Part shown: one piece after another, positions 2,765-35,735 of the stretch
How positions within the stretch are numbered: the first letter of the stretch is position 1
Layout: each line of letters opens with the position of its first letter
Source of the DNA: Coriobacteriales bacterium
GTDB taxonomy: Bacteria > Actinomycetota > Coriobacteriia > Anaerosomatales > JACRBU01
DNA: 64,000 nucleotides
Direction of reading: 5' to 3'
Assembly: GCA_016213085.1 (NCBI GenBank)
Contig: JACRBU010000157.1
Coordinates: forward strand, 1,065 to 65,064
Translations under genes and position numbers: made by a program
Notes under the pieces: generated by a model
What the model saw: the letters and a program-made list of their open reading frames with translations, nothing else
Databases searched by the model: none
What the model was told of the DNA's origin: nothing

Positions 2765-2790
2765 TATGAACATATGAGCAAACGTTCATA
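2765..2790. promoter_or_regulatory. Inverted repeat TATGAAC-N12-GTTCATA, a candidate ArsR/SmtB-type operator overlapping the regulator start codon
   Basis: Seen directly: TATGAAC at 2765-2771 and GTTCATA at 2784-2790. The TGAAC...GTTCA cores resemble published SmtB/CadC/CzrA operators. A TAGTAT -10-like hexamer lies at 2762-2767. Confidence 0.45.
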
Positions 2791-3160
2791 TACAGCTTTC
2801 GCCGAGGGCGAGTGCACTGCCACCGTGGTTGATGCGGCGGCAGTGACCGATGCTCGTTCTGGGATGGCAGACGAAGCAACCACCACGAAAGCGACCGACA
2901 TCTTCTCCGCACTCGCGGACCCGACCCGGCTCCGCATGCTGATGGCTCTCAGCCGATGTGAGCTCTGCGTCTGCGATCTGGCGTCGGTGTGCGGGATCTC
3001 CCAGTCCGGCGTCAGCCACCAGCTGCGGCTGCTTCGCGATCGAGGGTTGGTCGCGTTTCGGCGCGACGGCCAGCGCGCTGTATACCGTCTTGCGGACGAC
3101 CACGTGCGCACGCTGATCGCAGAGGGGCTGGAGCATGCCTCCGAGGAGCGTGTCTCGTGA
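2774..3160 (+). CDS. ArsR/SmtB-family metalloregulator, CadC-like (alpha3 CVC site plus an N-terminal Cys)
   Basis: 128 aa. Contains the winged-HTH sequence FSALADPTRLRMLMAL...ELCVCDLASVCGISQSGVSHQLRLLRDRGLV...RDGQRAVYRL. There is no SD before the ATG, which sits about 7 nt after the TAGTAT, so the mRNA may be leaderless. The stop overlaps the ATPase GTG (GTGA). Confidence 0.9.
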   Translation: MSKRSYTAFAEGECTATVVDAAAVTDARSGMADEATTTKATDIFSALADPTRLRMLMALSRCELCVCDLASVCGISQSGVSHQLRLLRDRGLVAFRRDGQRAVYRLADDHVRTLIAEGLEHASEERVS

Positions 3161-5529
3161 CGGAACGAGCTTCTGCCACGTTCACGCTGCAGGGGCCGAG
3201 GTCGGATCGCGCGCGCTGCATGGCGTGTGCGGAGCGCGTGTGCGAATCGCTCCAGCAGGTCCCCGGGGTCGGGAAGGTCGAATGCAATCCGTCCGCGGGC
3301 GCGGTGGTGGTTGAGTACGACGCCGAGCGGGTCAGCGAGGCCGATCTCATCGCCGAAGTCGAACACTTCGAGATGACGCTCGCTGAGAGCGTCGGGCACG
3401 CGTCGTGGCGCATATCGGGACTCGATTGACCGGACTGTGCTCGCACCGTGAGTGCGACCGTCGAGCGCGTCGGGGGCGTTAAGCACGCGGACCTGAACTT
3501 CGCGAGCGGGACGCTACTGATCGAGTACGACCTCGCCGCAGACCCACGCGCGGCCGTCGTGAAGGCGGTCGAGTCCACCGGTCACGGACTCGTGCCGCTC
3601 GACCAGCCTGCGGAATCGGAGGATATCCCGGCTCGCTCATTCCTCGACCGCTACCGAGCCGAGATCGCCGCGATCGGTGGCGTTTTGTTCGCGGCACTCG
3701 GCGCCGCGCTCGAGCTCGCTGACGCGCCATCGCGTCTCAGTATCCTCGCGTTCGCCATCTCGATCCTCTTCGGCGGGCTACTCGTGTGGCGGCGCGCGCT
3801 GGTGTCGCTGCGCGCCCGTCGGCTGGACATGAACGTGCTCATGTCGGTCGCCGTCTTCGGCGCGGCTGCCATCGGCGAGTGGGGAGAAGCGGCGACCGTC
3901 TTCTTCCTGTTCTCGCTCGGCGGCCTGCTCGAGGCCCGGTCGCTCGAACGGACCCGACGCTCCATCCGCGACCTCATGGACCTGACGCCACCCACGGCCA
4001 GAATCGTTCGGGGTGGTCAGACCATCGAGGTTCAGCTCGACGAGGTCACCATCGGCGAAACCGTGATCGTACGCCCCGGCGAGCGCGTCCCCCTCGATGC
4101 AGTGGTCTCCGAAGGAAGCTCCGCGCTCGACGAGGCACCCATCACCGGGGAGTCCGTTCCAGTCGACAAGCAGGTCGGCGACGCGCTCTTCGCCGGCTCG
4201 CTCAACACGACCGGGCTACTGCGGGCAGTGGTCTCCTCAACGGCCGCTGACTCGACGCTGGCACGGATCGTCTTCATGGTCGAGGAGGCTCAGGCGTCCC
4301 GGGCGCCCTCGCAGCGTCTTGTCGACCGATTCAGCGCCTACTACACGCCGATCGTCGTCGTGCTCGCGGCACTGATCGCCGTCATCCCACCGCTTGTCGG
4401 CATCGCATTCGGTCTCCCGACCGGCGGGTTCGTCGAATGGGTCCAGCGCGCGCTCGTCATGCTCGTTGTCGCGTGTCCGTGCGCCCTGGTTATCTCGACA
4501 CCGGTGTCCATCGTCTCCGCGATCACCCGCGCGAGCCGCGATGGAGTGCTCGTGAAAGGCGGCACCTTCCTGGAGACCGCGGCACGCGTGCGGGCGGTGG
4601 CGTTCGACAAGACGGGGACGCTCACGGTGGGCAAGCCCCGCGTCGCCCAGGTGCTCGCTCTCGACGGAACGACGCCGGAAGCCCTGCTCGGGATCGCGGC
4701 CGTCCTCGAGGCGCACTCGGTTCATCCGATCGCACGGGCAGTGGTAACGGCAGCTGGCGATTCCGTACCGTCCGGTTCCGTCCAGGACTTCACCGACGTT
4801 CCTGGTCACGGGGTCAGAGGCGTCTACGGCGGGACATCGTGGATGCTCGGCAGCCCGGCCGTCGCCGAGGGCGAGGGGTTCCTCACGCCCGAGGCCGCGA
4901 AGGCTGTCGCCTCCCAGGAAGAGAGCGGTAGGACCGCACTCGTGCTTGTGGGCGACGCGGAGGCCCGCGCCGTCATCGGCGTCGCCGATATGATCCGGGA
5001 CGAGGCCCCCGCCGCCGTTGGCAAGCTCGGCCGCCTCGGCGTGGAGCACACCATCATGCTCACGGGTGACAACGAGCGGACCGCCGAAGCGGTCGCGTCG
5101 GCGGTCGGCGTCAACAGCTTCCTAGCGAGGCTCCTTCCCGCAGGCAAGACCGACGCGATCCGCGTGCTCAAGGAGCGGTACGGGGCGGTCGCCATGGTCG
5201 GCGACGGAGTCAATGACGCGCCTGCGCTCGCCGCGTCCGACATCGGGATCGCCATGGGCGCCGCGGGCAGCGATACCGCCCTCGAGACCGCCGATGTGGC
5301 GCTGATGCGTGACGACCTTACGGCGCTGCCCGGGTTCATCGCACTCGGTGGCCGAACGGTGAACATCATCTGGCAGAACGTGATCTTCTCGATAGCGGTG
5401 AAGTTCGTCGTGCTCGCGCTTGCCGTGGTCGGCGTCGCGACGCTCTGGATGGCCGTGTTCGCCGACACAGGGGTCTCCCTGTTGGTCATACTGAACGGGA
5501 TGCGTTTGCTGCGCCGAAAGAACACCTAG
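3157..5529 (+). CDS. P1B-2-type (Zn/Cd/Pb, CadA/ZntA-like) heavy-metal ATPase with two N-terminal HMA domains. One in-frame TGA at 3427-3429 occupies the first Cys position of the second CxxC motif (candidate Sec codon, pseudogene or sequence error).
   Basis: Track ORFs 2989..3429 and 3448..5529 are in the same frame, separated only by the TGA. Reading through gives HMA1 (CMAC) followed by ...WRISGLD-[TGA]-PDCARTVSATVERVGGVKHADLNFASGTLLIEYD, a complete second HMA fold. The core motifs are CPC (VVACPCALV), DKTGTLT, HP (SVHPIA), GDGVNDAPAL and a last-TM ADTG. The GTG at 3157 overlaps the regulator stop. Confidence 0.85.
3441..3457 (+). other. RNA hairpin TCGCAC-CGTGA-GTGCGA starting 11 nt after the in-frame TGA; candidate bacterial SECIS upper stem-loop
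   Basis: Six perfect base pairs (3441-3446 with 3452-3457) and a 5-nt loop, CGUGA, that contains GU. The position and loop content resemble the minimal E. coli fdhF SECIS. The function is untested. Confidence 0.35.
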
Positions 5530-22751: not shown

Positions 22752-23004
22752 GGTCGCCGTCAAGGCGTCTGTACTGAAGGACCTGAAGCGCCTCGCCCCC
22801 AGGGACCGCGAACGATGCCTCGCCGTCATTGGCGAGCTCGCCGGGCAGCCTCGCCCTCCAGGATGCGAGAAGCTGAGCGCCCAAGAGCATTACCGAGTGC
22901 GTGTGGGAGGCAACCGCATCGTGTACGAGATCCGCGACGCGCAGCTCGTCGTGTGGGTGGTCAAGGTCGGTAACCGGGGAGACGTCTACAGGCGGATGCG
23001 ATGA
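22738..23004 (+). CDS. RelE/ParE-family toxin
   Basis: 88 aa from the ATG at 22738. Contains the typical ...HYRVRVGGNRIVYEIRDAQLVVWVVKVGNRGDVY. Its TGA stop overlaps the uvrC ATG (ATGA). Confidence 0.75.
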   Translation: MATYEVAVKASVLKDLKRLAPRDRERCLAVIGELAGQPRPPGCEKLSAQEHYRVRVGGNRIVYEIRDAQLVVWVVKVGNRGDVYRRMR

Positions 23005-24911
23005 GTGAATCATCCGGGTACCCCACCATCGTCGAGCAGGTCGCGTCGGTACCGGATCGCCCGGGGGTCTACCTCTGGAAGGGCGCCGAGGGCCAGGTCC
23101 TCTACGTCGGCAAGGCGAAGTCGCTGCGCAAGCGAATGCGTCAGTACGTCATGGGCCAGGACGACCGCGAGAAGGTCCCGGTCATGATGGAGCAGGTCGC
23201 TTCCTTCGATTACGTCGTGACCGAGACAGAGGTCGACTCCCTCGTCCTCGAGAAGAACCTGATCAAGCAGTTCCGCCCCGACTTCAACGTCGACTACCGC
23301 GACGACAAGTCCTATCCGTTCATCGCGATCACGACCGGCGACCCGTATCCCGCTATCAAGTTCACGCGTGAGAAGCGCAAGCCTGGCACTCGGTACTTCG
23401 GGCCGTACACGAATGCGAACGCTGCCCGCGAAACCATCGACGTCGTCCGGCGCATCGTCCCGATCTGCACGGCGGCGTGCGTCGAGTGGAAGCGCGTGAA
23501 CGCCAAGGGCGGCGAGCCCACCGGCAAGGCGTGCTTCGACTACCACGTCGGCAAGGGCCCCGGCCCGTGCGTCGGAGCAATCACCCGCGAACAATACGCC
23601 GGGAGCGTGGCGAAGGTCTCGCGCTTCCTTTCCGGCAAACACGAGGAGATCGTCGGAGAGCTCGAGGAGCAGATGCGCGCCGCCGCCGCCGACCTCGACT
23701 TCGAGGCGGCCGCGCGATTCCGCAACCGCCTTGAGGCAGTCAGCGCCATTCGGCAGCGCCAGAAGGTCGTCTCGGCCCGCCCGCTCAACATGGACGTCAT
23801 CGGCTTCTTCCGCGAGGAGACGATCGCAGGCGTACACCTCTTCGTGGTTCGCGAGGGCCGCGTGCTCATCGGGAACGAATTCGTCCTGGACAAGGGTCTC
23901 GACGTGCCCATGGCCGAGCTGGTCGAGGGCTTCCTGCTCCGCTACTACGACGAGACCTCGAGCCTGCCGAAGGAGATCCTGCTCCGCGACCTGCCCGATG
24001 ACCCGGACACGGTCGGAGAATGGCTGAGCACGCTTCGCGGGTCGAAGGTGAAGCTTTCGGTGCCCCAGCGCGGCGAGAAGCGCGAGATGCTCGAGCTCGC
24101 CGAGCTCAACGCACGCCACACGCTCATGCGCTTCAAGGTCCGCACGCGCTATGACGAGGAGCGCATGAATGCCGCGCTCCTGCAACTCGAGAACGCGCTC
24201 GCGCTACCTGCGCCTCCGTTTCGGATCGAGGCGTTCGATATCTCGACGCTCCACGGAACGCACTCGGTCGGCTCGATGGTGGTGTTCACGAACGGGCGCG
24301 CGGAGCCCAAGGCGTACCGACGCTTCCGCGTGCGCGGGGAGACGGGCGAAGCCAATGACGTCGCGATGATGGCCGAGGTGCTTCGGCGGAGGTTCTCCGC
24401 GACGAGACAGGCGGACGCCCGCTTCGCGGCGAGCCGCCCGGACCTGCTCGTCGTCGACGGCGGGAAACCCCAGCTCAACGCGGCTCGCGCGGTTCTCGCC
24501 GAGCTGAGCGTCGATGACGTCCCGGTCGCGGGCCTCGCCAAACGCGAGGAGGAGCTCTGGGTCGAGTGGGCCGACGAGCCGGTCGTCCTTCCGGCGGGGT
24601 CGCCTTCGCTCTTCCTCATGAAGCGCGTGCGCGATGAAGCCCACCGGTTCGCGATCGAGTACCACCGCAAGCTCCGTGGCCGCGCGATGACCTCGAGCGC
24701 GCTCGACGAGGTGCCGGGCGTCGGCCCGAAGCGGCGCAAGGCGCTCGTGAAGGCGTTCGGGTCGATCAAGCGGATGCGCGGCGCGACCGTCGAGGATCTC
24801 GCCACGACTCCGGGCATCCCGCGCGACGTCGCCGAAGAGGTCTATGCGACCTTGCATGCCGGCGGCGGAGAGCAGGCTCGGGACGAGGGCGATTCGGCCG
24901 AAGGAACCTAG
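23001..24911 (+). CDS. uvrC: Excinuclease ABC subunit C
   Basis: 636 aa with an N-terminal GIY-YIG domain (PGVYLWK...VLYVGKAKSLRKR), a UVR domain (LDFEAAARFRNRLEA) and a C-terminal endonuclease/HhH region. Confidence 0.96.
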   Translation: MSESSGYPTIVEQVASVPDRPGVYLWKGAEGQVLYVGKAKSLRKRMRQYVMGQDDREKVPVMMEQVASFDYVVTETEVDSLVLEKNLIKQFRPDFNVDYRDDKSYPFIAITTGDPYPAIKFTREKRKPGTRYFGPYTNANAARETIDVVRRIVPICTAACVEWKRVNAKGGEPTGKACFDYHVGKGPGPCVGAITREQYAGSVAKVSRFLSGKHEEIVGELEEQMRAAAADLDFEAAARFRNRLEAVSAIRQRQKVVSARPLNMDVIGFFREETIAGVHLFVVREGRVLIGNEFVLDKGLDVPMAELVEGFLLRYYDETSSLPKEILLRDLPDDPDTVGEWLSTLRGSKVKLSVPQRGEKREMLELAELNARHTLMRFKVRTRYDEERMNAALLQLENALALPAPPFRIEAFDISTLHGTHSVGSMVVFTNGRAEPKAYRRFRVRGETGEANDVAMMAEVLRRRFSATRQADARFAASRPDLLVVDGGKPQLNAARAVLAELSVDDVPVAGLAKREEELWVEWADEPVVLPAGSPSLFLMKRVRDEAHRFAIEYHRKLRGRAMTSSALDEVPGVGPKRRKALVKAFGSIKRMRGATVEDLATTPGIPRDVAEEVYATLHAGGGEQARDEGDSAEGT

Positions 24912-28197: not shown

Positions 28198-29121
28198 ATG
28201 CCCGAGCAATGCCCGCCCGACGTCGCTGAAGAGAACCTCCGAGTCGAGCCGGAGCTCGTGCTGATCACCGGCATGTCGGGGGCGGGGCGCTCCGAGGCGC
28301 TGCACACGTTCGAGGACCTCGGCTACTTCTGCATCGACAACCTCCCGCCGTCGTTCATGCCGCAGCTCGTCGAGCTCGCGAAGCTCCCAGGCAACCGTAT
28401 CCGCCGCATCTGCGTCGCTTCCGACGTGCGCTCCACGCGCCTGTTCAGCGAGCTGGGCGGCCAGTTGGCGCGCCTCGAGGACGAGGGGCTTCCCGCTCAC
28501 GTGATCGTCCTCGAGGCCGAAGAGGACACGCTTGTGAACCGCTTCAAGGCGACACGCCGGCGTCATCCGCTCTGCGACGAAGGGGGCTCGCTTCTCGACG
28601 AGATCAGGGCCGAGCGCGCGGCGCTCGGCGATATCCGCGAGCGGGCCGACGTCGTCATCGACACCTCCGACATGCGGCCGCAGGAACTTCGGCAGACTCT
28701 CAAGGACGTCTACTTCACCGAAGGGCTCGGGCAGACGCTCTCGATAACGGTCAGCTCCTTCGGCTTCAAGTACGGCGTGCCGACCGACGCCGACATCATG
28801 ATGGACGTGCGCTTCCTGCCGAACCCGTACTACATCTCCGACCTGCGCGATCTCAACGGTCTCGAGGCGCCGGTCATCCAGTTCGTGCTCGAGCGCCCCG
28901 AGACGATCTTGTTCCTCGAGAAGTGGCTGGGGCTGCTCGACGTGCTCATGCCCGGCTACATCATGGAGGGCAAGCACCACCTCTCGATCGCGGTCGGATG
29001 CACGGGCGGCATGCATCGATCGGTCACCCTCGCCGAGGAGACCGCGCGGTTCCTTCGCGACCATGGCTATCGTGTGGCCGTGAGCCATCGCGACATCGGT
29101 CGCGACTTGGTGGCGCGGTGA
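28198..29121 (+). CDS. rapZ: RNase adapter / nucleotide-binding protein RapZ (YvcJ)
   Basis: 307 aa with the P-loop ITGMSGAGRSEAL and a conserved C-terminus (GCTGGMHRSV). AGGAGG lies before the ATG. Confidence 0.93.
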   Translation: MPEQCPPDVAEENLRVEPELVLITGMSGAGRSEALHTFEDLGYFCIDNLPPSFMPQLVELAKLPGNRIRRICVASDVRSTRLFSELGGQLARLEDEGLPAHVIVLEAEEDTLVNRFKATRRRHPLCDEGGSLLDEIRAERAALGDIRERADVVIDTSDMRPQELRQTLKDVYFTEGLGQTLSITVSSFGFKYGVPTDADIMMDVRFLPNPYYISDLRDLNGLEAPVIQFVLERPETILFLEKWLGLLDVLMPGYIMEGKHHLSIAVGCTGGMHRSVTLAEETARFLRDHGYRVAVSHRDIGRDLVAR

Positions 29122-30070
29122 GCCGGGTCGGCGAGGGGCGTTCGGCGGTCGCCATCGGCGGAGGCACGGGCCTTCCGCTCGTCTTGCGCTGTCTGCTGTC
29201 GCTCGGGTTCTCCACGTCCGCGGTTGTGACGATGGCGGACGACGGCGGCTCCACCGGCGTACTTCGGCGTCAGCTCGGCATCCTGCCGCCCGGCGACATC
29301 CGCAACTGCCTCGTGAGCATGGCCGCCGACCCCGACAGCCTCGATGCGCAGTTGTTCCAGTACCGCTTCGCCGAGGGCGAAGGTCTGGCGGGCCACGCCC
29401 TCGGCAATCTCATCCTCGCGGCGCTCGCCGACCTGACCGGGTCGTTCCCGGCTGCGATCGAGCACGTCGCATCCGCGCTCGACGTGCAGGGGCGTGTTCT
29501 GCCGTCGACCCTTGCGGACGCCGTGCTTCACGCGACCGACCGCCGGGGCGAGCCGATCTCGGGGCAGGCCCGCATCGCGCAGAGCCCGGTACCGGTCGCG
29601 CGCGTGTGTCTCGAGCCGGAAGATGCGTCCGCGTACGAGCCTGCTCGCCAGGCCATCGAGGAAGCGGACGTCATCGTGATCGGTCCCGGCTCGCTCTACA
29701 CGAGCATCATCCCGAACTTCCTGGTAGAGGGGATCGCTGCTGCCGTGCGTGAGTCGAAAGCCCGACGCGTCTACGTCTGCAACGTCGCGAACATGCGCGG
29801 TGAGACCTCGGGGTTGAACGCGGCCGATCACGTCGAGGCGGTCACGCAGCACGGGCTCGCGGGCTCCATCGACGTGGCCCTCGTGAACGTGGAGCCAGGC
29901 GAATCGCGGCCCTCCGACGGAGTCGAGCGCGTGGTCGCAGACGCCAGCCAGCTCGAGCGCATCGTCGAACTCGGCGCGCGCCCGGTCGGCGTCCCGCTGG
30001 CCGACTCGAGCGACCCCGTCCGTCACGATCGCGCAGCGCTCTGCGAGGCCCTCGAGCAGGTGCTTGCCTG

Positions 30071-30071
<1 letters not shown>
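29118..30071 (+). CDS. yvcK: YvcK/CuvA-family (CofD-like) gluconeogenesis/cell-shape factor
   Basis: The start was reset to the GTG at 29118 (GTGA overlap with the rapZ stop). Motifs include AIGGGTGL and GPGSLYTSIIPN. Confidence 0.9.
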
Positions 30072-32118
<2,047 letters not shown>

Positions 32119-32194
32119 GGCGCATCGACGGTGACCGACGCGCGCCCGGGCACGACGCCCGGGCGCGTTCATGCCCGACGAGGAGGGGCCAGCC

Positions 32195-33382
32195 TTGTTC
32201 GCCAAGAAGACCGTCAAGGACGTTGACGTCCGCGGCAAACGCGTACTCGTGCGCGTGGACTTCAACGTGCCTCTCGCCGACGGAGCGGTGACCGACGACA
32301 CGCGCATCCGGGCTGCGCTACCCACGTTGCGCTACCTCGTCGACCACGGAGCGCACGTCATCATCATGAGCCACCTCGGAAGGCCGAAGGGTGAGCCCGA
32401 GGAGCGCTACTCGCTGCGGCCTGTTCGCCGCGTGCTTCAGCGCCTTCTCGGCCGAAACGTGGTGTTCGTCGACGACATCGTCGGACCCGACGCTCAGGAG
32501 GCCGTCGGCCGCATGGTCGACGGCGAAGTGCTCATGCTCGAGAACATCCGCTTCCACCCGGGCGAGAAGGCCAACGATCCCGAGTTCGCCAAGGCGCTCG
32601 CTTCGCTCTGTGACATCTACGTCAACGATGCATTCGGCGCCGCGCATCGCGCACACGCCTCGACCGCGGGCGTCGCCGAGTTCGTTCCTGCGGTCGCCGG
32701 CCTTCTGCTGTCGCGCGAGGTCGAGATCCTCACGGACATGCTCGCTGACCCGGAGCACCCGTTCGTCGCCATCCTCGGCGGATCGAAGGTCTCCGACAAG
32801 TTCGGCGTGATCGACCGGCTCATCGAGGTTGTCGACAGTCTGCTCATCGGCGGTGGGATGGCGTTCACGTTCCTCGTTGCGCAGGGCATCGAGGTGGGGG
32901 ACTCGATCGTCGAACAGGACTGGATCGAGCCCGCTCGCAAGATGCTGGAGAAGGCCGCTTCGCGCAACGTGCAGCTCGTCCTGCCGGTCGATTTCGTGAT
33001 CGCCGAGGCGATGGAGCCGGACGTCGACACCCGCATCGTCGGCCGGGAGGAGATTCCCGCCGGCATGAAGGGCCTCGACGTGGGCCCCACGACCGTACAG
33101 CTCTTCAGCGCCGAGATCGCGGCCGCGCGGACGATCTTCTGGAACGGCCCTATGGGCGTGTTCGAGATGAAGGCGTTCGAAGCGGGCACGCGAGAGGTGG
33201 CCGTCGCCGTCGCTCGCAACAACCGAGCTGTCTCCGTCGTCGGCGGGGGCGATTCCGTCGCGGCGCTCAAGAAGTTCGACCTCGAGGAGCGCGTCACGTT
33301 CGTCTCGACCGGTGGTGGCGCTTCGATGAAGCTGCTTGAAGGCACGCCGCTGCCCGGCGTCGAGGCGCTGCTCGACGCGTAA
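32195..33382 (+). CDS. pgk: Phosphoglycerate kinase
   Basis: TTG at 32195 preceded by GAGGAGG. Contains RVDFNVP and other PGK signatures. Confidence 0.95.
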   Translation: MFAKKTVKDVDVRGKRVLVRVDFNVPLADGAVTDDTRIRAALPTLRYLVDHGAHVIIMSHLGRPKGEPEERYSLRPVRRVLQRLLGRNVVFVDDIVGPDAQEAVGRMVDGEVLMLENIRFHPGEKANDPEFAKALASLCDIYVNDAFGAAHRAHASTAGVAEFVPAVAGLLLSREVEILTDMLADPEHPFVAILGGSKVSDKFGVIDRLIEVVDSLLIGGGMAFTFLVAQGIEVGDSIVEQDWIEPARKMLEKAASRNVQLVLPVDFVIAEAMEPDVDTRIVGREEIPAGMKGLDVGPTTVQLFSAEIAAARTIFWNGPMGVFEMKAFEAGTREVAVAVARNNRAVSVVGGGDSVAALKKFDLEERVTFVSTGGGASMKLLEGTPLPGVEALLDA

Positions 33383-33436
33383 CCGACCGCAACGCGTTCG
33401 TCGCCGCGCGACCATACGCAGGAGGAGAGGGAACCG

Positions 33437-34204
33437 ATGGACCGACGCCCGCTCGTCGCAGGCAACTGGAAGATGTACAAGACCTCCGGTGAGGCCGCCG
33501 TTCTCGTGCAGAAGCTCGAGGACTACGCGTCCGGCTGGAGGGACATCGACGTCGTGGTGTGCCCGCCGTTCGTCGATCTGAAGGCCGTCTCGACCGTTAT
33601 CGAGCTCGACGAGGTGCGAATCGCCCTCGGTGCGCAGAACGTGTACTGGGAAGAGGAGGGCGCGTTCACTGGCGAGGTGGCGCCCCGAATGCTCGTGGAG
33701 CTGGGCGTCACGTACTGCATCGTCGGCCATTCGGAACGTCGCGAGTACTTCGGCGAGACCGACGCGGGCGTGAACAAGAAGGTCCATGCGCTGCTAGCCC
33801 ATGACATCACGCCGATCATGTGCTGCGGCGAATCGCTCGAGACCCGCGAAGCGGGGGATACCGATGCCTTCGTGCGCGAACAGGTGCGCAAGGGCCTCGA
33901 CGGCATCACTGCTGAGCAAGCCGGGCGGATCGTCATCGCCTACGAGCCCATCTGGGCGATCGGCACCGGTCGCACGCCAACGCCCGAGATGGCGAATGAC
34001 GTCTGCCGCTCCATTCGAGCGACGGTCGGCGCCATGTTCGGCCAGCCCGCCGCCATCCAGACGCGCATCCTCTATGGCGGTTCGGTAAAGGCCGAGAACG
34101 CCCGGGTGTTCTTCGGCGAGCCCGACATCGACGGTGCGCTCGTCGGCGGCGCGTCACTTGACCCGGAGGGCTTCAGCCGGATCGCGGAAGCGGCCATTGG
34201 ATAG
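33437..34204 (+). CDS. tpiA: Triosephosphate isomerase
   Basis: 255 aa with AGNWKM, GHSERR and AYEPIWAIGTG. Confidence 0.95.
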   Translation: MDRRPLVAGNWKMYKTSGEAAVLVQKLEDYASGWRDIDVVVCPPFVDLKAVSTVIELDEVRIALGAQNVYWEEEGAFTGEVAPRMLVELGVTYCIVGHSERREYFGETDAGVNKKVHALLAHDITPIMCCGESLETREAGDTDAFVREQVRKGLDGITAEQAGRIVIAYEPIWAIGTGRTPTPEMANDVCRSIRATVGAMFGQPAAIQTRILYGGSVKAENARVFFGEPDIDGALVGGASLDPEGFSRIAEAAIG

Positions 34205-34205
34205 C

Positions 34206-35735
34206 ATGCGCAACCTGCCCGCAGCGCTCATCATCCTGGACGGCTTCGGCATGGCCGATGGCGGCACCGGCAACGCCATCGCACGCGCCAACACGCCGAA
34301 CCTCGACAGACTCTTCGCCGAGAACCCCATGACCCTGCTCGAAGCCTCCGGGCTTTCGGTCGGTCTTCCCGAAGGGCAGATGGGCAACAGCGAGGTCGGC
34401 CACTTGAACATCGGTGCGGGACGGGTCGTCTACCAGGAGCTCACGCGCATCAACATGGCTATCGAGGACGGCACCCTGTTCGAGAACCCGGTGCTGATCG
34501 AGGCGATGGACCGCGCGGCAGCGGCCGGCACGGCCGTGCACTTCATGGGCCTGCTCTCGGACGGTGGCGTTCACAGCCATGAGGACCACCTGTTCGCTCT
34601 GGTACGGATGGCGCAAGAGCGCGGTGCCTCGCGCGTCTTCGTGCACGCCATCCTCGACGGCCGTGACGTGCCTCCGACTTCGGGACTCGGGTACGTGGAG
34701 ACCCTCGAGGCACGGATGCGCGAGCTTGGCATCGGCGAGATCGCTACGGTCATGGGACGCTACTGGGCGATGGACCGCGACAACCGCTGGGACCGCGTGC
34801 AGCGGGCCTGGCGGGCGATGGTTCTCGGCGAAGGCGTCCCGGCGGAAGACGCGCCTTCGGCTGTCTCAGCGTCGTACGCCAACGACGTGACCGACGAGTT
34901 CGTCGAGCCCGCGATCGTCGAGCGGGAGGGTTCTCCCATCGCCCGGATGAGCGATGGAGACACCGTCGTATTCTTCAACTTCCGCCCCGATCGTGCGCGC
35001 GAGATCACGAGAGCGCTGGTCGACCCGACGTTCCTCGGCTTCGAGCGGCCGGCGTTCCCGTCACTGGAGTTCGTCTGCCTTACCGAATACGACCCGACCA
35101 TCCCGGCTCCGATCGCGTTCCCGAAGGACCTGCCGAACAACGTCCTCGCCGACGTGCTCGCCGCACACGGATTGCGTCAGCTGCATATCGCGGAGACCGA
35201 GAAGTATGCGCACGTCACCTTCTTCCTGAACGGCGGGGTGGAGACTCCCAAGCAAGGTGAGGAGCGGATTCTCGTTCCGAGCCCGAAGATCCCCACATAC
35301 GATGCCCAGCCGGAGATGAGCGCTCCGAAGGTGACCGAAGAGCTCGTGAACGCGATCGGCCGCGACGCAGCGGACGTCTACATCGTCAACTACGCGAACT
35401 GCGACATGGTCGGCCACACAGGCGATCTCGAGGCGGCGATAGCCGCGGTGGAGGCGGTCGACGCGGGCGTGGGTGCGGTGGTGGAGGCGATCACCGCCAA
35501 AGGGGGAGCGGTTCTCTTGACCGCCGATCACGGCAATGCGGAAGACATGGTCACCGACGAAGGATCGCCCGTGACGGCCCATACGCTCTCGGCAGTCCCG
35601 CTGGTAGTCACGGCCGACGGAGTGACGGCCCTGGCCGACGGCGGGATCCTGGCGGACGTGGCGCCGACACTCCTGGACGTCATCGGCATCGCCCCCCCGA
35701 GCGAATGGACGGGCAGGTCGCTGTTGATATACTAG
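34206..35735 (+). CDS. gpmI: 2,3-bisphosphoglycerate-independent phosphoglycerate mutase
   Basis: ATG at 34206, directly after the tpiA stop. Contains ILDGFG, GNSEVGHLNIGAGR, VNYANCDMVGHTG and TADHGNAE. Confidence 0.93.
   Translation: MRNLPAALIILDGFGMADGGTGNAIARANTPNLDRLFAENPMTLLEASGLSVGLPEGQMGNSEVGHLNIGAGRVVYQELTRINMAIEDGTLFENPVLIEAMDRAAAAGTAVHFMGLLSDGGVHSHEDHLFALVRMAQERGASRVFVHAILDGRDVPPTSGLGYVETLEARMRELGIGEIATVMGRYWAMDRDNRWDRVQRAWRAMVLGEGVPAEDAPSAVSASYANDVTDEFVEPAIVEREGSPIARMSDGDTVVFFNFRPDRAREITRALVDPTFLGFERPAFPSLEFVCLTEYDPTIPAPIAFPKDLPNNVLADVLAAHGLRQLHIAETEKYAHVTFFLNGGVETPKQGEERILVPSPKIPTYDAQPEMSAPKVTEELVNAIGRDAADVYIVNYANCDMVGHTGDLEAAIAAVEAVDAGVGAVVEAITAKGGAVLLTADHGNAEDMVTDEGSPVTAHTLSAVPLVVTADGVTALADGGILADVAPTLLDVIGIAPPSEWTGRSLLIY

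Follow-up and report, generated by a model that had tools for sequence, protein, structure and literature searches.

Heavy-metal ATPases with a UxxC motif are a listed family of predicted selenoproteins (PMC13188914, PMC9312934, PMC5029168). The family was reported by Zhang and Gladyshev in 2007 (PMC1976440) and in the 2008 Global Ocean Sampling survey (PMC2398784), and a later count gave 32 proteins in 25 organisms (Peng et al., 2016, PMC5029168). Here we describe a gene that appears to belong with them. In a 64,000-nt stretch of DNA from a Coriobacteriales bacterium (GenBank assembly GCA_016213085.1, contig JACRBU010000157.1; the whole stretch is hereafter the window), positions 3157 to 5529 of the forward strand most likely make up a single gene that encodes an efflux ATPase for heavy metals, 790 residues long and of the Zn/Cd/Pb (P1B-2) type, its codon 91, a UGA at 3427–3429, being no stop. 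Comparison with relatives indicates that this UGA is very probably decoded as selenocysteine (Sec), and in the window gene and at least 55 relatives Sec most likely stands in the metal-binding loop of the pump. The initial annotation of the window, made from its letters alone, had called such a product an unusual selenoprotein; the 25 organisms already on record show that it is not.

Reading frame, domains and the UGA codon

The open reading frames (ORFs) at 2989..3429 and 3448..5529 share one frame and are split only by the TGA at 3427–3429, as the initial annotation had it, and reading from the GTG at 3157 to the TAG at 5527–5529 gives 790 codons with that TGA as the sole internal stop. The start at 3157 overlaps the stop of an upstream regulator gene (GTGA, combining the regulator’s TGA and the pump’s GTG), has GAGGAG 8 nt on its 5′ side, and agrees with the N-termini of relatives, which read M(S/T)(D/E)R..ATF. 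Frame, domains and family scores together define the full pump gene at 3157..5529 (+ strand). The residues ahead of the TGA are HASWRISGLD, followed by PDCARTVSATVERVGG, and the proposed Sec codon (3427..3429, + strand; residue 91) would replace the first Cys of a CxxC motif, as judged from alignment and from relatives.

Domain searches, run with Cys substituted at the TGA, returned Pfam matches to HMA at residues 85–143 (in two stretches, E = 5.8e-22), to E1-E2_ATPase and to Hydrolase (HAD). The HMA match (PF00403; 3409..3585, + strand) is the second of two N-terminal domains and holds the U-P-D-C metal-binding loop; in alignment with ZntA (PDB 4umv) the TGA codon lines up with the leading Cys of GMDCAAC. 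Pfam and the ZntA alignment therefore agree in placing the UGA exactly where the initial annotation had placed it, at the first metal-binding Cys of the HMA CxxC (GLD-U-PDCAR). The first domain (3229..3360, + strand) is metal-binding-like and resembles HMA_2, with CMACAERVC forming a CxxCxxxxC motif; it matches PF19991 at residues 25–68 with 34.5 bits against a cut-off of 30, and it is kept in most TGA-type relatives and absent from some. As a side observation, this extra domain with RCMACAERVC (window 3157–3360) barely exceeds the HMA_2 cut-off.

At the level of the whole protein, the heavy-metal P-type ATPase model TIGR01525 is passed with 582.6 bits (cut-off 346.25) and the cadmium-family model TIGR01512 with 497.8 bits (cut-off 313.5), whereas the copper-family model TIGR01511 gives 372.7 bits, under its cut-off of 397. 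The top matches among solved structures are ZntA (4umv, E = 7e-122) and CadA (7qbz, E = 1e-110). The P1B-2 subgroup is marked by CPC, a conserved Lys, and the DxG of the last two helices; the window pump has ACPCALVISTP, with CPC in the ion path, and SIAVKF and FADTG correspond to ALGLKG and LADTG of ZntA. The P1B-2 assignment made by the initial annotation is thus upheld by TIGR01512, by the copper-family score and by the best structural matches. The sequence supports a pump of the Zn/Cd/Pb type, with transport of these metals predicted.

The identity of the codon was followed through relatives. Metagenomes were scanned with a pattern (GGNCTNGAYTGHCCNGAYTGYGCNCG) that admits TGA, TGC or TGT at this position, and the matches were pooled with loci from a genome collection, giving 82 distinct sequences with the GLD[U/C]PDCAR motif. 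TGA is found at the site in 55 of them and TGC or TGT in 27; among the ten closest genome-collection loci, six have TGA (GLD-stop-PDCAR) and four TGT or TGC. Homologs at greater distance (Brevibacillus and others) have Cys throughout, and in the relatives examined the codon alternates with Cys only, never with another sense codon, which is the classical signature of Sec/Cys pairs. The 55 TGA-bearing sequences come from independent assemblies and lie at roughly 53–69% protein identity. Their frame stays open for about 700 codons 3′ of the UGA, and 5′ of it they encode a conserved beta-1 strand, HAAYRVTGLD, preceded either by a complete first domain or, at several loci, by a Met just 13–20 codons before the UGA. 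L157, a syntenic ortholog from a chromosome of 2.5 Mb, has the same TGA and hairpin. A neighbour-joining tree of pump cores (no support values) gathers the TGA forms into a single large clade; some Cys forms branch outside this clade and others inside it. Sec appears to be the majority state at the sensing site of the pump in a subsurface and sediment clade of Coriobacteriia, and reversion to Cys seems to have happened repeatedly.

These results bear on how the gene is recorded. A protein search identifies the GenBank coding sequence at 3448..5529 (+ strand) as MBI5232160.1 (100% identity), a protein of 693 residues whose annotated start, GTG 3448, lies inside the loop of the hairpin described below. 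MBI5232160.1 is most likely a truncated call of a longer selenoprotein gene. Gene calls of 675–720 residues without the HMA domain make up about half of its best 120 protein matches (60–69% identity, about 87% query cover), a truncation identical to that of the window’s own gene call. Gene callers placed the start of dozens of relatives at this GTG too, the GUG that never varies in the hairpin loop. This entry and about half of its closest database relatives stand recorded as pumps of some 690 residues that begin inside the putative selenocysteine insertion sequence (SECIS), while their true products would most likely be about 100 residues longer (710–790 residues) and contain Sec.

The hairpin downstream of the UGA

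Selenocysteine insertion in bacteria is associated with a hairpin just downstream of the UGA, for which a consensus (bSECISearch, quoted in PMC13188914) gives a loop of 3–9 nt, a stem of 4–16 bp, a distance of 16–37 nt from UGA to loop, a G in the first two loop positions, and an energy of −7.5 kcal/mol or lower. The initial annotation had pointed to a 6-bp hairpin, UCGCAC-CGUGA-GUGCGA, 11 nt downstream of the UGA, and it is present as described. This candidate SECIS, recognized from sequence and relatives, occupies 3441..3457 (+ strand), with arms at 3441–3446 (UCGCAC) and 3452–3457 (GUGCGA) and a loop at 3447–3451 (CGUGA); it begins 11 nt past the UGA and its loop 17 nt past it, and its stem of 6 bp has no bulge. 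The loop of 5 nt, the upper stem of 6 bp and the UGA-to-loop distance of 17 nt are all within the consensus ranges, and the second loop position holds the G that the model asks for, with a U after it. The hairpin satisfies the published consensus, with a borderline energy. As a single sequence it exceeds chance only moderately: some hairpin fitting a loose bacterial SECIS model follows 11.6% of UGA trinucleotides in the window, which is 66% G+C, while only 0.6% are followed by a hairpin with 6 bp or more whose loop lies exactly 17 nt away.

Because the single-sequence evidence is weak, the case rests on the relatives. The initial annotation had set a test in advance, asking whether orthologs with TGA carry a conserved hairpin when those with TGC or TGT do not, and the outcome was positive: all 55 TGA forms, but just 2 of the 27 Cys forms, have a hairpin with 5 bp or more whose 5′ arm ends exactly 17 nt past the codon (Fisher p = 4.6e-19). 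Across relatives the hairpin is far beyond chance by this measure. Two stem registers occur. The window’s type is CGCAC/GUGCG with a 5-nt loop, and the commoner type, found in 43 sequences, is CGGAC/GUCCG, which closes a loop of 9 nt; the 5′ arm is fixed between them, the 3′ arm lies 4 nt further downstream in the second, and the Arg codon is CGC or CGG, matching its 3′-arm partner. In two of the TGA forms the stem is atypical although its spacing from the UGA is unchanged, one of 8 bp with a 4-nt loop, GCGCGGUC-GGUC-GGCCGCGC (L135, minus strand, codon at 907), and one of 7 bp with a 3-nt loop (L005, 3019–3060). The helix is perfect and free of bulges in the window and its relatives, the loop always opens with CGUG, and its GUG is the same in every TGA form.

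Compensatory changes and constraint at synonymous sites both mark the hairpin of the TGA forms. In the alignment of the window’s type, 95.8% of cells are paired and two of the six pairs have changed on both sides. At pair 19–27, which goes from A-U to G-C, Thr becomes Ala and a synonymous AGU-to-AGC replacement restores the pairing; the basal pair is U-A in the window and C-G, A-U or G-U elsewhere. The covariation score is 0.207, compared with 0.090 in shuffles, and none of 500 shuffles scored as high. Third-codon positions within the hairpin are near-invariant in TGA forms (0.13 bit), whereas neighbouring third positions, and the same hairpin positions in Cys forms, vary by 1.3–1.7 bit; Cys forms with a near-identical peptide (TVDKSV) use other codons, and the stem is broken. 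A minimum-energy alternative helix was also considered as the functional fold and was rejected, being 60% paired in relatives and no better than shuffles. A separate observation concerns a terminator-like stem with a T-run at 3665–3682, within the ATPase coding region, which is probably a chance match (0.8 expected in shuffles). The hairpin illustrates how a SECIS missed by single-sequence thermodynamics and by Rfam can be established through orthologs with Sec and with Cys together with constraint at synonymous sites.

Decoding of the UGA and rival explanations

Several observations count against Sec decoding, or soften the evidence for it. The 54 nt at 3427–3480 fold no better than shuffles (z = 0.14), the minimum-energy fold takes another, longer competing helix, and the hairpin has an ensemble probability of about 5% in naked RNA; the bare hairpin, at −7.3 kcal/mol, just misses the consensus threshold, and Rfam gave no SECIS match in 3300–3600 at E values up to 10. 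Two Cys forms, L002 and L010, also bear a hairpin at the SECIS position, which is hence not strictly exclusive to TGA forms, and since the TGA forms fall mostly in one clade, part of their conservation is shared descent. Neither tRNA-Sec nor selA, selB or selD was found in the 64-kb window or the fetched loci. Finally, a 2022 review places the Sec-containing ATPases among families predicted in silico (PMC9312934), and no experimental demonstration of Sec insertion was found in the literature for any member of the ATPase family.

Some of these points can be set beside further results. With a GAC/GUC lower stem the hairpin reaches −7.8 kcal/mol, which passes the threshold, and its ensemble probability rises to about 0.5 once the 13–14 nt that start with the U of the UGA are blocked, which a ribosome paused at that codon would do. 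The hairpin of L002 (3031–3075) is of the window’s type, and L002 is nested in the Sec clade of the neighbour-joining tree, which fits a recent change from Sec to Cys; L010 (3031–3075) is a Cys-codon relative that retains a hairpin at the SECIS position.

As to the Sec machinery, ARAGORN found no tRNA-Sec in the window or in any of the 157 fetched sequences (1.1 Mb), Rfam at the gathering score over the whole window gave tRNA-Leu only, with no SECIS or tRNA-Sec, and Pfam searches of 20 mid-sized and large window ORFs turned up nothing beyond housekeeping functions (acs, uvrC, whiA, gap, pgk, amt, others) and no Sec machinery. The trait itself is present in the class: Sec decoding is reported for Eggerthella, Slackia, Cryptobacterium and others among the Coriobacteriia (PMC5029168 supplement) and for most Eggerthellaceae (PMC13462651), while no literature was found on Sec in Anaerosomatales/OPB41. 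We infer, from the gene and its relatives, that this organism decodes Sec.

The best surviving alternative, though an improbable one, takes the UGA as a true stop, giving a 90-residue metal-binding peptide and a pump restarted downstream, e.g., at GTG 3448, with the hairpin serving coupling, re-initiation or another role. Gene callers annotate this very arrangement, P1B pumps without N-terminal metal-binding domains still transport metal, the GUG of the loop is invariant in all TGA forms, and the failure to find Sec machinery in the window would be accounted for. However, the stop would split the HMA fold between beta-1 and the metal-binding loop, leaving half of a broken domain in each product; on this ground the initial annotation had judged a restart at GTG 3448 implausible, and its objection stands. 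The upstream ORF would shrink to 13–20 codons in several relatives, the HMA remnant downstream is conserved as protein, no Shine-Dalgarno-like purine run precedes GTG 3448, and the exclusive alternation of the codon with Cys is the mark of Sec rather than of a stop.

Slightly less credit still is due to read-through of another kind. UGA followed by C is a weak termination context, at which a near-cognate tRNA-Trp or tRNA-Cys might be accepted, and UGA might also have been reassigned to Trp; here too the lack of Sec machinery in the window and fetched loci would need no explanation. Reassignment of UGA to Trp has precedent within the Coriobacteriia, in some Eggerthellaceae with genomes of 31–40% G+C and without release factor 2 (PMC13462651), but the window differs from these lineages in its high G+C content. 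In the window TGA is an ordinary stop that ends 17 of the 47 gene calls, so the code is not reassigned. A scan of the window for other in-frame TGA codons with coding signal on both sides returned the site at 3427 only, plus artefacts of gene boundaries and antisense reading (an initial, stricter threshold had missed the 3427 site too), and the 287 kb of TGA-type loci held no additional UxxC or CxxU candidate. With the codon aligning with Cys and not with Trp, reassignment was rejected; plain leakiness, for its part, would not need an element of SECIS geometry that is conserved only beside TGA.

Least credible is that a TGC or TGT codon came to read TGA through a recent nonsense mutation or a sequencing error, the two alternatives kept by the initial annotation, or through a pseudogene lesion or faulty assembly: TGA is a single substitution from either codon, the window comes from a metagenome-assembled genome, and the GenBank pipeline took the TGA as a stop, but the 55 distinct and divergent TGA sequences and the syntenic ortholog exclude it, as the frame is intact for some 700 codons downstream and conserved upstream and a position-specific hairpin goes with the TGA.

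With Sec as the most likely identity of the residue, a mechanism can be proposed. The 17-nt stem-loop at 3441–3457 would lie where the mRNA enters a ribosome that has paused on the UGA; there it may recruit the elongation factor SelB with Sec-tRNA(Sec), leading to insertion of selenocysteine. In the product a selenolate/thiolate pair, U-P-D-C, would replace the Cys pair in the metal-binding loop of the second N-terminal HMA domain, and this domain may capture or sense a soft divalent metal and modulate the pump. The metal specificity and the chemical contribution of Sec we likewise infer. A stronger proposal is doubtful: that Sec does more than a better Cys would, either because U-P-D-C shifts the response to metals or metalloids, or because the UGA and SECIS tie pump output to selenium. 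If the former held, the pump might respond to, e.g., Hg(II), or, in sulfidic water, to Cd(II) of which very little is free; if the latter, a full-length regulated pump would be made with selenium, and termination or an N-truncated product would result without it.

The finding corrects an annotation and supplies a well-populated natural series of Sec and Cys forms for the role of selenium in the sensor domain of a metal pump. The clade would be a convenient test system, given its wealth of natural Sec/Cys pairs, its two SECIS registers and its cultured Anaerosomatales relatives, and the question it opens is whether Sec serves as a metal ligand in the regulatory domain of a transporter and what it gains over Cys.

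Genomic setting and comparison with known systems

Upstream of the pump lies a gene for an ArsR/SmtB-family metalloregulator of 128 residues with an ELCVCDL motif (2774..3160, + strand), whose sequence (...RCELCVCDL...) matches the winged-helix domain HTH_5 with 57.7 bits (cut-off 22; E = 1e-15) and NF033788 with 99.7 bits (cut-off 55); ELCVCD is read as the metal-sensing Cys motif in the helix. No specific equivalog, CmtR and others included, attains its cut-off for this protein. The “CadC-like” regulator of the initial annotation holds as an ArsR/SmtB protein with ELCVCD, whereas “CadC-like” itself is descriptive, with no equivalog assignment behind it. An imperfect 12-2-12 inverted repeat, TATGAACATATG-AG-CAAACGTTCATA, lies at 2765..2790 (no strand assigned), its 12-nt arms 83% complementary and 2 nt apart; it is AT-rich and spans the ATG of the regulator gene. 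By likeness to known ArsR/SmtB 12-2-12 operators, the repeat is probably an operator for such a repressor. The pump gene would be translationally coupled through GTGA to the repressor gene, and the repressor probably binds at 2765–2790.

The chromosome that carries the syntenic ortholog has uvrB, arsR, an 89-residue “HMA” ORF, a 693-residue ATPase, an ABC1 kinase and acs, in the order seen in the window. A metal-pump operon set in a conserved chromosomal neighbourhood suggests that the locus is on no obvious mobile element. On L157 (6033–21178) the order continues past the acetyl-CoA synthetase with GlnD, P-II and an ammonium transporter, and the genes scanned in the window at 600–24911 fit this order (ABC1, acs, two ammonium transporters). 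Further along, uvrC (23001–24911) lies upstream of an actinobacterial-type housekeeping cluster at 28923–35735 (CofD/YvcK-like, whiA, gap, pgk, iPGM) that is unrelated to the finding.

Among characterized pumps, ZntA and CadA are the nearest. The window pump shares with them CPC, the conserved Lys (AVK) and the Asp (ADTG) of the last two helices, as well as an N-terminal HMA domain of the GxDCxxC type, whose Asp is retained (GLD-U). It differs in having UGA, predicted to be Sec, where they have Cys, and in its additional HMA_2-like first domain with CxxCxxxxC. Placement of Sec in an HMA-like metal-binding loop has parallels in NCBIfam NF041115, “UxxU metal-binding (seleno)protein,” and in the MerP/MerT selenoproteins (PMC2398784). 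NF041115 matches residues 83–142 of the window protein weakly (44.7 bits, under the cut-off of 95); unlike these proteins, the window domain is fused to a pump, and its motif is UxxC, not UxxU.

For the hairpin, the reference is the SECIS of E. coli fdhF, whose minimal form, in work of Liu and colleagues from 1998, is reportedly an upper stem-loop of 17 nt that is spaced 11 nt from the UGA and has GU in its loop. The likeness that the initial annotation saw holds for geometry, i.e., the 17-nt stem-loop, the 11-nt spacer and the GU in the apical loop. It does not hold for the bulged U, which is absent from the window stem, and the sequences are unrelated. Compared with reference SECIS elements the window stem is short and thermodynamically marginal, with no Rfam match. 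The hairpin is predicted to be SECIS-like in function and not a copy of the fdhF type.

The closest match is with the published Sec-ATPases themselves, compared through their published descriptions. As in that family, the window gene encodes a heavy-metal P1B ATPase (TIGR01525/COG2217) over the TIGR01525 cut-off, has the predicted Sec at the first Cys of an N-terminal CxxC (UxxC), has Cys homologs and has a SECIS-like hairpin just downstream; like its predecessors, it is known by prediction. It comes from a high-G+C metagenome-assembled genome of the Coriobacteriales, and its clade is large and mostly Sec-bearing, with a GLD-U-PDCAR motif and two alternative SECIS registers. The window gene shows every sequence-level feature of the predicted heavy-metal ATPase selenoprotein family, which would make it a new, mis-annotated member of that family and not a new kind of selenoprotein.

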